Made by a program: the position numbers and the translations under genes
Notes under the pieces: generated by a model
Seen by the model: only the letters and a program-made list of their open reading frames with translations
Told to the model about the DNA's origin: nothing
Database searches by the model: none
NCBI GenBank assembly: GCA_964544985.1
Contig: CAZJEE010000001.1
Location: forward strand, 14,314-56,577
From: an uncultured Candidatus Saccharibacteria bacterium
Lineage (GTDB): Bacteria > Patescibacteriota > Minisyncoccia > Minisyncoccales > PWPS01
Reading direction: 5' to 3'
Length of the DNA: 42,264 nucleotides
In this document: positions 13,914 through 21,183 of the stretch, in pieces
Layout: the number at the start of each line of letters is the position of its first letter
How positions within the stretch are numbered: the stretch's first letter is position 1

Positions 13914-14025
13914 TTACGGGGGCTACCTACTTTCGCGGTAAACCACTATCATCGGCCTTAGGATATTTCACTTCTGTGTTCGGAATGGGAACAGGTGGAG
14001 CAATCCCAGTATAACCCCCATAATT
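13914..14025 (-). rRNA. rrf: 5S rRNA
   Basis: The reverse complement contains CCACCUGUUCCCAUUCCGAACACAGAAGUGAAA and GAUGAUAGUGG...CGCGAAAGUAGGUAGCCCCCGUAAUU. The 5' AAUUAUGGGGG pairs with the 3' CCCCCGUAAUU as helix I. It lies 32 nt downstream of 23S. Confidence 0.9.
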
Positions 14026-14057: not shown

Positions 14058-16982
<2,925 letters not shown>

Positions 16983-16999
16983 TTGATGATTACTATTTA

Positions 17000-17036
17000 T
17001 TTTTCTTACTTTTTATGGCTCACCAAGTAAGAAAAA
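17000..17036 (-). other. 12-bp leader hairpin about 18 nt upstream of the mature 23S 5' end
   Basis: Plus TTTTTCTTACTT (17000-17011) is complementary to AAGTAAGAAAAA (17025-17036), with a 13-nt loop. Confidence 0.4.
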
Positions 17037-17117
17037 TTATTCAGTTGTTTAGTGTTCGTTGCGATTTTCAACAACCGCATGCTACAAATAATTTCTGAAG
17101 CATATTGTCGTTAAACT

Positions 17118-17136
17118 CTCTTAGAAAAAAAGAACC
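17118..17136 (-). promoter_or_regulatory. boxA-like element in the 23S leader
   Basis: The minus strand reads GGTTCTTTTTTTCTAAGAG. It shares GTTCTTTT with the 16S leader element and resembles the Gram-positive rrn boxA TGTTCTTTGAAAA. Confidence 0.3.
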
Positions 17137-17225
17137 GCTCACGGCGAGCAGATAGAATCTACTTTCATCCGTTTTGCCTTTTATCTGTATTTATTATTAG
17201 TCATTAATTCACTTAAACTACGTGC

Positions 17226-17253
17226 ATTTTAGCAAAAGAAAAAAAGATGTCAA
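17226..17253 (-). promoter_or_regulatory. Putative promoter of the 23S-5S unit
   Basis: Minus strand TTGACA (17248-17253), a 16-nt spacer, then TAAAAT (17226-17231). It lies about 240 nt upstream of the 23S 5' end and directly after the terminator of the preceding gene. Confidence 0.6.
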
Positions 17254-17265
17254 GTATGAAACACA

Positions 17266-17288
17266 AAAGAGGAGAAAAGCTCCTCTTT
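17266..17288 (-). terminator. Intrinsic terminator of the membrane-protein gene
   Basis: The minus strand reads AAAGAGGAG-CUUUU-CUCCUCUUU followed by UGUGUUU. It starts 24 nt after the stop codon at 17312. Confidence 0.7.
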
Positions 17289-17311
17289 TGTTTTCTATGG
17301 TGAAGATAAAT

Positions 17312-17983
17312 TTACTTAATCTTCTTCTTCATTTTTTCAATGAATTTCGCTGCGGCATCTTTTCCTCCAAGACCAAAAGAAAGTCCACCAGCAAGAACGA
17401 AAAAGTAAATTAGTCCTTGAAATGCAGTAAGCAAAAGTTCACGAGCAATACCAAGTTGTATCAGAATTGCAAAAGATGCAAATACCCAAATAGCAACTTT
17501 AACCATTGCTCCCGCAGTTAACGAATAAGGAAAGTCTGATCTCTCGGTAGTAGCAATTACAAGCTTTGCCAAAAAATCACCAATCATAACCGCAACAACG
17601 AAAATTAAAGTTGCTACAATTACGTTTGGAAGATATGCAACAACATCAGTCATAAAGTGTGCAAACTGACTAAGCCCCAAAATTCCTACTGTCATCCAAA
17701 TAACAATAATAAAAATCACCCATTTCATAACATTTCCTAAAAATTCAGAAGGGTTGATTTTTATCTCGGCTTTTTGAATCGCTTTTTCCCACTTTTCGCC
17801 TTCAAAAAATTCATTGAATTTCAGACGATAAAGAAGTCCGGAAATAATTTTTCCAGAAGCAATTGCAATAAACCAACCAACGATAAAAACAAAAAGAGCT
17901 GCAACTAAACCAGGAAGGAAAAGCATAAAGTTCTCCCAAAAGGTTTCAAACACTCTCCCCATAACATCATACCAATTTGTCAT
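17312..17983 (-). CDS. Membrane protein with 'conserved TM helix' repeats (resembles the MscS-family N-terminal region)
   Basis: 223 aa with about 5-6 TM helices and repeated segments of the type LPGLVAALFVFIVGWFIAIASGKII / LPNVIVATLIFVVAVMIGDFLAKLV. It has its own promoter and terminator. Confidence 0.55.
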   Translation of the reverse strand: MTNWYDVMGRVFETFWENFMLFLPGLVAALFVFIVGWFIAIASGKIISGLLYRLKFNEFFEGEKWEKAIQKAEIKINPSEFLGNVMKWVIFIIVIWMTVGILGLSQFAHFMTDVVAYLPNVIVATLIFVVAVMIGDFLAKLVIATTERSDFPYSLTAGAMVKVAIWVFASFAILIQLGIARELLLTAFQGLIYFFVLAGGLSFGLGGKDAAAKFIEKMKKKIK

Positions 17984-18048
17984 GGTTTTTATAAATTAAA
18001 TAATAATTAATAATATTTGTGTCCGACCTTTAGTATTATCTTGTTTTT

Positions 18049-18076
18049 ATTGTAATAGATTTGAAATATATGTAAA
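18049..18076 (-). promoter_or_regulatory. Putative promoter of the 17312-17983 gene
   Basis: Minus strand TTTACA (18071-18076), a 16-nt spacer, then TACAAT (18049-18054). Confidence 0.45.
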
Positions 18077-18108
18077 GAGCAAAGCTCGGTAAATACTTTT
18101 TTTAGGTT

Positions 18109-18135
18109 ATAAAAAAGAGCATCTTTACGATGCTC
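18109..18135 (-). terminator. Intrinsic terminator of the orphan 18.1-18.4 kb unit
   Basis: The minus strand reads GAGCAUC-GUAAA-GAUGCUC (18135-18117) followed by UUUUUU (18116-18111). Confidence 0.7.
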
Positions 18136-18158
18136 TTTCAACCCATATTTTTCTCCCA

Positions 18159-18329
18159 CTATTTTTTTAAAAAGTGGGAAAAAGTTTTTAACAATCCATT
18201 CCCTATCACAAAAAATAGTGAAAGAAAAAAGATTGCAACTGGTATCGCCAGTGTTACCTGCGCATACAGGTATGGCGACACCTTCCATGCCTGATGTAGC
18301 TCCATCAGGACTCCAAAAAAATCAACCAT
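18159..18329 (-). CDS. Possible small membrane protein (56 aa), below the ORF-track cutoff
   Basis: Hand translation gives MVDFFGVLMELHQAWKVSPYLYAQVTLAIPVAIFFLSLFFVIGNGLLKTFSHFLKK, from ATG at 18329 to TAG at 18159. It has one predicted TM helix. AAAGGAG lies 10 nt upstream (18340-18346). Its G/C-ending codons (CTG x3, GCG x2, CAG x2, TCG) look atypical next to neighbouring genes. Confidence 0.3.
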   Translation of the reverse strand: MVDFFGVLMELHQAWKVSPYLYAQVTLAIPVAIFFLSLFFVIGNGLLKTFSHFLKK

Positions 18330-18379
18330 TTCTCCCCGACTCCTTTCATTCTTTTTTCTATATAAAGAACTATGACTAT

Positions 18380-18408
18380 ATTATAACTTATTTATTTTTC
18401 TTTGTCAA
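18380..18408 (-). promoter_or_regulatory. Perfect consensus sigma-70 promoter (TTGACA-N17-TATAAT)
   Basis: Minus strand TTGACA (18403-18408), the 17-nt spacer AAGAAAAATAAATAAGT, then TATAAT (18380-18385). Confidence 0.7.
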
Positions 18409-18450
18409 TGGATAGAAAAACAGGAAATTAAATGTTAAGATACATGCATT

Positions 18451-19263
18451 ATGAAAAAAAATATTGGTGTTTTCGATTCTGGCTTTGGTGGAATAAGTAC
18501 ACTCCGCGGAATCGTTAAAGAGCTTCCAGAATATAATTATATTTATCTGGGAGACAGTGCACGTACTCCCTACGGAACCCGTTCTCAAGAAACTATCCTT
18601 CGGTTCTCACAAGAAGCGGTTAATTTTCTAATCAAGAAAAATTGTGATTTGATAATTTTTGCTTGTAACACTGCTTCAAGCAAAGCATTGCGCAAAATTC
18701 AAAGAAACTACATCAATAAACTACATCCAGAAAAAAGAGTTCTCGGAGTTCTAATGCCCGCAGTCGAAGAAGCTGCAGAAAAAACCAAAAACAAGAGAGT
18801 CGGAGTTATTGCTACCGAGGGAAGTGTCAAATCTATGTCTTTTAAAAAAGAACTTAAATTAATTGATAAAGAGATAAAAGTTTTTCAACAGGCCACTCCC
18901 CTTCTTGTCCCTCTTGTAGAATATGGAGAACATAGATCAAAAATAACAGATCTTATTTTAAAAAAATATTTGAAAAATTTACTTAAGAAAAATATCGATA
19001 CTTTAATTCTTGGTTGTACGCATTATGGAATATTAGAGAAAAAAATAAGGAAAATAATCGGACCAAAAATTATAATTATTTCTGATAAAAAAGTAGTTCC
19101 CAAAAAATTGAAAAGTTATCTTTTGCGACATACTGAAATAGAATCTAATTTAAAAAAGAATGGTGTTGTAAAGTTCTATACAACCGACTCAACGGAAAAA
19201 TTTACTCTTCTTGGCAGTAAGTTCTTTGGAGAAAAAATAAAGGTTAAAAAAACCTCATTATAA
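18451..19263 (+). CDS. murI: Glutamate racemase
   Basis: 270 aa with FDSGFGG near the N-terminus and the two catalytic-Cys contexts FACNTAS and LGCTHY. Confidence 0.9.
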   Translation: MKKNIGVFDSGFGGISTLRGIVKELPEYNYIYLGDSARTPYGTRSQETILRFSQEAVNFLIKKNCDLIIFACNTASSKALRKIQRNYINKLHPEKRVLGVLMPAVEEAAEKTKNKRVGVIATEGSVKSMSFKKELKLIDKEIKVFQQATPLLVPLVEYGEHRSKITDLILKKYLKNLLKKNIDTLILGCTHYGILEKKIRKIIGPKIIIISDKKVVPKKLKSYLLRHTEIESNLKKNGVVKFYTTDSTEKFTLLGSKFFGEKIKVKKTSL

Positions 19264-19274
19264 GAAATGAGGTT
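19251..19274. terminator. Bidirectional terminator hairpin between murI (+) and tRNA-Ala (-)
   Basis: AACCTCATT-ATAAGA-AATGAGGTT. On the minus strand it is followed by UUUUUUAACC, so it is strong there. On the plus strand it overlaps the murI stop codon and is followed by UUAGAC, so it is weaker. Confidence 0.65.
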
Positions 19275-19283
19275 TTAGACGAG

Positions 19284-19357
19284 TGGACCCTACCGGATTC
19301 GAACCGGTGACCTCCGCTTTGCAAAAGCGGCGCTCTAGCCAACTGAGCCAAGGGCCC
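19284..19357 (-). tRNA. tRNA-Ala (anticodon UGC)
   Basis: The reverse complement is GGGCCCTTGGCTCAGTTGGCTAGAGCGCCGCTTTTGCAAAGCGGAGGTCACCGGTTCGAATCCGGTAGGGTCCA. It has the G3:U70 identity pair and anticodon loop UU-UGC-AA. Confidence 0.92.
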
Positions 19358-19371
19358 ATAATTTAAAACTA

Positions 19372-19448
19372 TGGTGGGCGTGCCAGGACTCGAACCTGGG
19401 ACCTCGTCATTATCAGTGACGCGCTCTAACCAGCTGAGCTACACGCCC
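19372..19448 (-). tRNA. tRNA-Ile (anticodon GAU), CCA encoded
   Basis: The reverse complement is GGGCGTGTAGCTCAGCTGGTTAGAGCGCGTCACTGATAATGACGAGGTCCCAGGTTCGAGTCCTGGCACGCCCACCA. Confidence 0.92.
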
Positions 19449-19661: not shown

Positions 19662-21155
<1,494 letters not shown>

Positions 21156-21183
21156 AAAGAGAATTCAAATATTCCTTAAAATA

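Follow-up and report, generated by a model that had tools for sequence, protein, structure and literature searches.

Between the two halves of the split ribosomal RNA (rRNA) locus of an uncultured Candidatus Saccharibacteria bacterium lies a short unit on the minus strand (18109-18408; all coordinates follow the numbering of the analyzed 42,264-nucleotide stretch of DNA, hereafter the window), which carries a 56-codon open reading frame (ORF) for a small single-pass membrane protein. Our analysis shows that two layers of selection act on this ORF at once: The peptide is conserved in seven other lineages, and the codons that spell it have been selected to fold the messenger RNA (mRNA) into stable hairpins, so that the mRNA structure itself is under selection. 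The explanation that we consider probable, though far from secure, is a strongly transcribed cassette whose hairpin-rich and probably long-lived mRNA encodes the small membrane protein. The initial annotation of this DNA had described a promoter and a terminator that bracket three hairpins and a possible ORF, had named a novel small RNA, the mRNA of a type I toxin-like peptide and a small membrane protein as candidates, and had leaned toward a function at the RNA level. Its account of the individual elements proved accurate, and the membrane protein is the candidate that the homologues in seven lineages, with their common transmembrane (TM) and charge pattern, bear out. The preference for an RNA-level function holds in so far as the codon choice is tuned to structure and one hairpin is conserved, and fails in that the ORF is a conserved protein gene.

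As an expression cassette, the unit is self-contained and monocistronic, and it begins with a sigma-70 promoter, TTGACA-N17-TATAAT (18380-18408, minus strand, on which nearly all genes of the window lie), that matches the consensus at 12 of 12 positions, as the initial annotation had recognized, and that is the sole exact match in the 42-kb window; if one mismatch is allowed, the window contains three matches compared with 0.59 expected by chance. An exact consensus promoter is also found upstream of the homologous ORF in the loci L008/L016, L009 and L010/L013 of related bacteria; the four lineages that keep it have 16S rRNAs of only ~88% identity. Transcription would start near 18373, which leaves a leader of ~44 nt with three elements: a AGTTCTTT segment just after the putative start, conserved in the alignment of relatives, a 5'-proximal stem-loop GUUCUUU...AAAGAAU (18348-18370, minus; predicted fold), and a purine tract resembling a Shine–Dalgarno (SD) sequence, AAAGGAG-UC-GGGGAG (18332-18346, minus, with AAAGGAG at 18340-18346 and GGGGAG at 18332-18337), which ends 2 nt 5' of the AUG and is kept in relatives. 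The combination of promoter, AGTTCTTT segment and a GAAAGGAG-N-GGGAG leader is common to the window, L003, L009 and L013, and in part to L008. At the other end, the unit is closed by the intrinsic terminator that had been proposed for 18109-18135 (minus): RNAfold draws the stem-loop GAGCAUC-GUAAA-GAUGCUC followed by U6 (stem-loop and U-run at 18111-18135). A pattern scanner had missed it, and we suspect that this happened because the stem is extended into the U-run. Equivalent terminators close the unit in L008, L009 and L013. In two relatives, the -10 box of the small-ORF promoter lies at the centre of a palindrome (AAAAAGAACTGT...ACAGTTCTTTTT; L009:1995-2030; L013:350-382) whose arms pair over up to 15 bp. 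This palindrome probably represents the upstream gene's terminator, which would overlap the promoter, although it could also be an operator.

The ORF extends over 18159-18329 (minus), ends with a UAG stop codon (18159-18161) and would encode the 56-amino acid (aa) peptide MVDFFGVLMELHQAWK... In agreement with the single TM helix that had been foreseen for it, the hydrophobicity and charge pattern of this peptide fits a membrane protein: The TM segment comprises residues ~25-43, the part preceding it has a net charge of -1 and the part following it a net charge of +3; the predicted topology is N-out/C-in. With the 56-aa product as query, an exhaustive HMMER search returned three short relatives (P0002, P0004 and P0005), and a profile search added P0006 to P0009, so that seven further members of 50-65 aa are found in related contigs of the candidate phyla radiation (CPR). 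Independently of these searches, synteny scans for PF05552 proteins in genomes and in metagenomes (two loci each) led to L008, L009 and L010, where the same small ORF lies just upstream. The members are only 14-45% identical to the window peptide and nevertheless follow one pattern, namely an acidic, aromatic N-terminal part (...LYEAW.), usually an S-P-Y-L-Y motif, a single proline-containing TM helix and a basic tail. In all eight members the best 19-mer reaches a mean Kyte–Doolittle value of 2.2-2.7, and the charge is distributed asymmetrically across this one ~19-residue hydrophobic segment, with -1 to -2 in the N-terminal and +2 to +12 in the C-terminal part, as is characteristic of small single-pass membrane proteins. 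Among the closest trio, L012, L014 and L015, the ratio of nonsynonymous to synonymous substitution rates (dN/dS) has values of 0.10-0.20. The trio shows two differences in length, both of whole codons, with the codon-sized insertions and deletions (indels) located in L014. Because the peptide is conserved in seven other lineages, evolves under purifying selection and accommodates indels in frame, the ORF is a genuine protein-coding gene.

The family is rare and unnamed, and confined in our searches to a clade of CPR bacteria that carry the label Saccharibacteria: A profile built from nine sequences returned the same eight clusters and no further members from 5.8 billion clusters, hence its designation as rare. 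Under-calling of such short ORFs may contribute to this apparent rarity, as gene callers treat identical DNA inconsistently and report the 56-aa ORF, a 93-aa ORF in another frame, or none. The 93-aa frame spans the terminator and the next promoter and has no counterpart in L008. Searches of Pfam, NCBIfam, PADLOC, PHROGs and PDB yielded no match above curated cut-offs, only sub-threshold noise from TM helices, and no homology was seen between the peptide and the N-terminus of the neighbouring PF05552 protein. A link to mobile elements was dropped, since tblastn against phages and plasmids found no match to the peptide; a search of viral contigs for the palindrome of hairpin B (described below) gave 36 matches, approximately the chance number by a rough estimate, in unrelated and mostly GC-rich contigs, none of which encodes a similar peptide. 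A previously unannotated family of small membrane proteins is thus added for CPR bacteria. The locus L003 represents a strain variant that is 100% identical to the window over ~420 nt. Between L003:2500-2550 and window 18300-18350, eight substitutions and several indels are clustered within ~45 nt that cover the leader and the first six codons; the changes are mostly G/A transitions, lead to V2T, D3N and G6E, and leave the AUG in frame.

The second layer of selection concerns the fold of the transcript. The 271-nt RNA has a minimum free energy (MFE) of -99.2 kcal/mol, compared with -59.4 +/- 4.2 kcal/mol for dinucleotide shuffles (z = -9.6). When 2106 segments of 170 nt from both strands of the window were compared by MFE regressed on G+C content, the four that cover 18055-18344 (minus) were the four strongest outliers, 3.9 to 4.8 standard deviations below expectation and ahead of the 5S and the other rRNAs. 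The fold is a row of five consecutive local hairpins. Besides the 5'-proximal stem-loop of the leader and the terminator, the predicted structures include the hairpins A to D (all minus): Hairpin A, CCUGAUG-GAGCUA-CAUCAGG (18290-18309), spans codons 7-14 and is specific to the lineage of the window, its place in the N-terminal coding part being taken by different hairpins in the other members. Hairpin B, a two-tier hairpin of 15 bp (18241-18282), marks the junction between the N-terminal domain and the TM segment. Hairpin C, an imperfect long stem (18191-18236; predicted fold), covers the second half of the TM-coding segment, and L013 is predicted to form a comparable stem (CUUAUCA...UGAUAGG). 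Hairpin D holds the UAG stop codon and extends the CCCACU-N12-AGUGGG hairpin (18155-18178) to UUUUUCCCACU/AGUGGGAGAAAAA (18150-18183). The two perfect hairpins A and B and the third hairpin thus lie where the initial annotation had placed them, and its count of 38 G+C among the 70 nucleotides of 18241-18310, set against an AT-rich window with a G+C content of ~33% outside the rRNA genes, is correct. The start region, by contrast with this compact body, is accessible: Base-pairing probabilities give a mean unpaired probability of 0.54 for positions -20 to +10, which is near the middle of the 33 window genes (range 0.34 to 0.77).

The extent to which this structure exceeds the demands of coding can be read from synonymous recoding, in which each coding sequence was recoded with the codon usage of the window. 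The coding sequence of the window unit folds with -61.3 kcal/mol, its recodings with -29.7 +/- 3.9 kcal/mol (z = -8.1). Seven of the eight members are far more stable than their recodings, with z between -3.5 and -6.2 for the six others, and only L008 is not significant. Even if the ORF's own synonymous codons are merely permuted, the window sequence stands out with z = -5.7, while nine control genes of the window (murI and eight others) lie between -0.5 and +0.6. The codons involved, which had already been noted as unlike those of the neighbouring genes, are rare in the window, where CTG accounts for 4% of leucine, TCG for 9% of serine, GCG for 22% of alanine and CAG for 29% of glutamine codons. 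As a side observation, the PF05552 gene of the window also folds more stably than versions in which its own synonymous codons are permuted (z = -4.2; the nine control genes ~0), an excess that is not seen in the orthologues from L008 (z = -1.4) and L009 (z = -0.9).

Hairpin B is the only element that RNAalifold retained across seven sequences, and its core GUCGCCA(U)/(A)UGGCGA(C/U) is found in six members. Its arms encode Ser-Pro on one side and Met/Leu-Ala-Thr/Ile on the other. Since the third position of the serine codon pairs with the second position of the alanine codon and vice versa, TCG and GCG are needed for pairing. In an alignment of six sequences, 83% of the cells are paired, compared with 24-55% after displacement of the 3' arm by one to three columns, and covariation is seen at the pair flanking the core and at two inner pairs (CG/AU/UA and UA/CG). 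Relative to synonymous recoding, hairpin B of the window reaches z = -4.7. We extended this comparison to the junction as such, that is, to the 48 nt that begin 11 codons ahead of the TM segment and end five codons inside it: The junction hairpin is more stable than the recodings in eight of eight members (z = -2.1 to -6.0), so that the conservation in relatives for which the initial annotation had asked is found for this hairpin as well as for the peptide. L008 (UUGGCAAAAU/AUUUUGCCAA) and L009 (GUCACG/CGUGGC within a longer stem) build their junction hairpins from unrelated sequences; therefore, it is the structure at this position, and not only the sequence, that is maintained. These patterns show that the codons have been selected to fold the mRNA. 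None of the present results changes a major question; the unit is a natural case of overlapping selection, in which eight lineages keep a peptide and a hairpin at one position, sometimes with unrelated sequences, and as such a test case for methods that separate coding constraint from constraint on RNA structure.

In the explanation that we favour, the strong promoter would provide an abundant transcript, the 5' stem-loop, the hairpins within the ORF and the terminator would make it a compact, RNase-resistant and long-lasting RNA, and the open start region would leave it translatable; the hairpins may also slow elongation. That the hairpins stabilize the mRNA or control its translation is what we infer from these features, as are high expression, mRNA stability and translation in this organism, and a stable, translated mRNA for a small membrane protein is the reading that requires the fewest assumptions. 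The closest known counterpart is lpp of Escherichia coli, likewise a short monocistronic unit that encodes a small envelope or membrane protein and combines a strong promoter, a compactly folded mRNA and a strong terminator. The lpp mRNA is rich in hairpins. Moreover, lpp is transcribed constitutively into a rather stable mRNA, yields a very abundant product and uses favoured codons, with a codon adaptation index of 0.8 (PMC5924895). The two units differ in that lpp encodes a 78-aa lipoprotein in favoured codons and the window unit a 56-aa TM peptide without sequence relation to it, and any likeness in stability and abundance is a putative one. Small accessory membrane proteins such as AcrZ, KdpF, MgtS and CydX resemble the 50-65-aa single-pass peptides in size and topology, and the neighbouring gene for a larger membrane protein (PF05552) in four of seven lineages is reminiscent of them, but no homology to the window peptide was found.

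Several points weigh against the stable-mRNA explanation. The hairpins are built from rare codons, unlike lpp; therefore, fast translation is not what is optimized. Stability and abundance of the transcript are deduced from its sequence, and the covariation statistics are thin, with just eight family members known. The conservation of hairpin B is not limited to its structure but includes its sequence, which makes a specific binding partner possible. Finally, a stable mRNA does not explain why the AAAGGAG...GGGAG leader is retained. The 3' end of the 16S rRNA (19663-19700) reads ...GUGGAAUAAUUAAC and contains no CCUCC, so that the coexistence of AAAGGAG with a 16S rRNA devoid of an anti-SD, which the initial annotation had found odd, is real; the 16S rRNA of L016, which is 88% identical to that of the window, ends in the same ...GUGGAAUAAUUAAC (L016:1560-1600), likewise without CCUCC. 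For part of the Parcubacteria, the anti-SD is reported to be lost (PMC9297842). GGAG, GAGG or AGGA occurs upstream of just one of the 34 other long ORFs of the window. The 16S tail GGAAUAAUUAAC could in principle pair with an AU-rich substitute for the SD, but such sequences are not enriched upstream of 35 ORFs, where the longest matches to this tail average 4.43 nt compared with 4.11 +/- 0.28 nt in shuffles. An SD-like leader kept in genomes that have lost the anti-SD is thus a concrete site at which to ask what such unpairable motifs do.

A bolder proposal accommodates the leader: The junction hairpin and the GGAG-rich leader might serve as recognition sites for a device dedicated to post-transcriptional control. 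Candidates for this device are an RNA-binding protein, a trans-acting RNA and the optional Zn-ribbon peptide described below. We hold this to be a tentative possibility at best. If it were true, the unit would be an RNA-regulated small-protein module, either toxin-like or dual-function; a full-text literature search found no report of such a module in CPR/Patescibacteria.

The rival that comes next to the stable mRNA, and which we nevertheless judge unlikely, is a type I toxin-like module, that is, a structured mRNA for a membrane-damaging peptide whose translation would be repressed by a small RNA, either antisense or acting in trans. Type I toxin mRNAs (hok, fst, tisB, aapA1) share with the window unit a small hydrophobic peptide with one TM helix, a folded mRNA and their own promoter and terminator, and the window peptide, with fewer than 60 aa, one TM helix and a charged tail encoded by a very structured mRNA, is of the kind that two papers describe as typical, namely a small hydrophobic toxin usually under 60 aa (PMC11264685, PMC8594479). 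In L009 and L013, the AGTTCTTT segment is predicted to pair with the GAAAGGA motif instead, so that a 5' stem covers the first GGAG and leaves GGGAG-AUG free, which resembles the short-range anti-SD stem-loops of toxin mRNAs (PMC8594479). Additionally, the alternative fold that had been suggested from the window, in which GGGGAGAA pairs with UUUUUCCC, is possible in sequence. Against these likenesses stand several differences: In the window, the accessibility of the start region is that of ordinary genes, no conserved antisense promoter or terminator and no antisense RNA gene was found at the locus in the window, L008, L009 and L013, the gene is single-copy and syntenic within the rRNA locus of lineages with ~88% identical 16S rRNA, and a toxin gene driven by a perfect consensus promoter would presumably be hazardous. 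It is for these reasons that a classic type I module is unlikely and that the toxin candidate of the initial annotation loses ground, although an antitoxin encoded in trans is conceivable. Furthermore, the host has no SD/anti-SD pairing to sequester, the gene is coupled to that of a Zn-ribbon peptide in three lineages, and neither PADLOC, PHROGs nor the phage and plasmid searches gave a match.

Somewhat less probable still is a dual-function RNA, which would act as a riboregulator or bind a protein through hairpin B or the GGAG-rich leader and encode the peptide in addition. Like SgrS/SgrT, RNAIII/hld and SR1/SR1P, the window unit is structured, independently transcribed, equipped with a small ORF and selected at two levels; its selection for structure exceeds coding needs, its promoter is very strong, hairpin B is conserved in sequence and contains rare codons, and a GGAG-rich leader that is kept in lineages without an anti-SD must serve another purpose. 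The known dual-function RNAs, however, carry their structure beside the ORF and not within it. If both arms are subject to the demands of coding and of pairing at once, this can account for the conserved sequence of hairpin B; in its place, L008 and L009 have unrelated hairpins, and no Rfam family matches.

A leader peptide or attenuator, in which translation of the small ORF would set the read-through of the terminator into the PF05552 gene, is very improbable. The arrangement of promoter, short ORF, terminator and same-strand gene invites this idea, as does the best permissive Rfam match, Phe_leader, which reaches 29.6 bits compared with a gathering score of 55 and is explained by the U-rich stem and the terminator. 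The downstream gene, however, has its own conserved promoter, TTTACA-N16/17-TA.AAT, between the terminator and the PF05552 gene (window, L008, L009, L013), and it differs among lineages, being another gene in L011, L012 and L014, which together make an attenuator unlikely. Moreover, the stop codon lies 23 nt before the terminator stem, no antiterminator alternative was found on reading the window sequence, and a second gene and another hairpin intervene in L009, L013 and L011. Hairpin B with its downstream U-run was also considered as an intragenic terminator and rejected, because the U-run begins 10-12 nt past the stem in most members and is therefore non-canonical; only L009 is terminator-like at this position. 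A further idea, that the hairpin causes a pause which aids membrane targeting, was set aside on the reasoning that the ribosome would meet hairpin B around codon 12, when synthesis of the TM segment has not yet begun.

A purely non-coding structured RNA, 6S-like or other, with an ORF by chance, which the extreme structure and the disagreement of gene callers might suggest, can be rejected almost outright, because the peptide is conserved while the DNA diverges, with dN/dS of 0.1-0.2, in-frame indels and a preserved TM and charge pattern, because the five local hairpins do not form the one long helix of 6S RNA, and because covariance models of Rfam over 17000-19300 found nothing at gathering thresholds, so that the unit is unclassified as had been supposed and the novel small RNA of the initial annotation falls away.

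The genomic surroundings of the unit are those of a split rRNA locus, between whose two halves it sits, as had been noted: The 16S gene (19663-21157) is followed by the transfer RNA (tRNA) genes tRNA-Ile and tRNA-Ala (19283-19448), and between these and the 23S (14060-16977) and 5S (13914-14022) genes lie a glutamate-racemase-like gene (murI, 18451-19263, plus strand), the small-ORF unit and, directly downstream of it, the PF05552 gene ("mechanosensitive channel, conserved TM helix", 223 aa, 17312-17983, minus strand). The order 16S, tRNAs, small ORF, PF05552 gene and 23S is also found in L016/L008, and in L009 the PF05552 gene is likewise followed by 23S; a related contig of a metagenome-assembled genome carries the label Candidatus Saccharibacteria. 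PF05552 adjoins the small ORF in four of seven lineages, so the adjacency is not universal. The interval from 16S-tRNA-Ile/Ala to 23S holds protein genes with their own promoters and terminators (window 17000-19300; L016:1-5730; L009), of which relatives retain two, the small ORF and the PF05552 gene, immediately ahead of 23S; the remaining genes vary (murI in the window, TspO in L016). The promoter of the PF05552 gene, (C)TCTTTACA-N16/17-TA.AAT, is conserved in four loci (window 18020-18076, minus; L008:1515-1580; L009:2400-2460; L010:800-870), and in the same four loci the motif AAAGGTCG(G/A) is conserved in the 5' untranslated region, at a distance of ~35-50 nt from the AUG.

Some relatives carry further elements next to the small ORF. 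In L009 (2212-2307), L010/L013 (612-710) and L011 (1517-1609), a Cys-rich, Zn-ribbon-like ORF of 31-32 aa with the motif ...GE.C.CG.VH.GQ.CPRCG overlaps or abuts the small-ORF stop codon, and AAAGGAGG sits within the last codons of the gene upstream of it; this second ORF is absent from the window, L008, L012 and L014. Motifs resembling a type III hammerhead (CUGAUGAG...CGAAAC) are located upstream of the small ORF or its operon in L014 (384-434) and L012 (1803-1857), with 28.4 and 32.9 bits and thus below the gathering score of 48.5, and do not occur in the window. Directly upstream of the small ORF, L011 (1180-1295) and L014 (475-598) share a long hairpin of ~110 nt, which shows four compensatory pairs between the two sequences and contains GTATAAT in its 3' arm; L015 (370-520) has a different hairpin there, which encloses four tandem copies of a ~24-nt unit.

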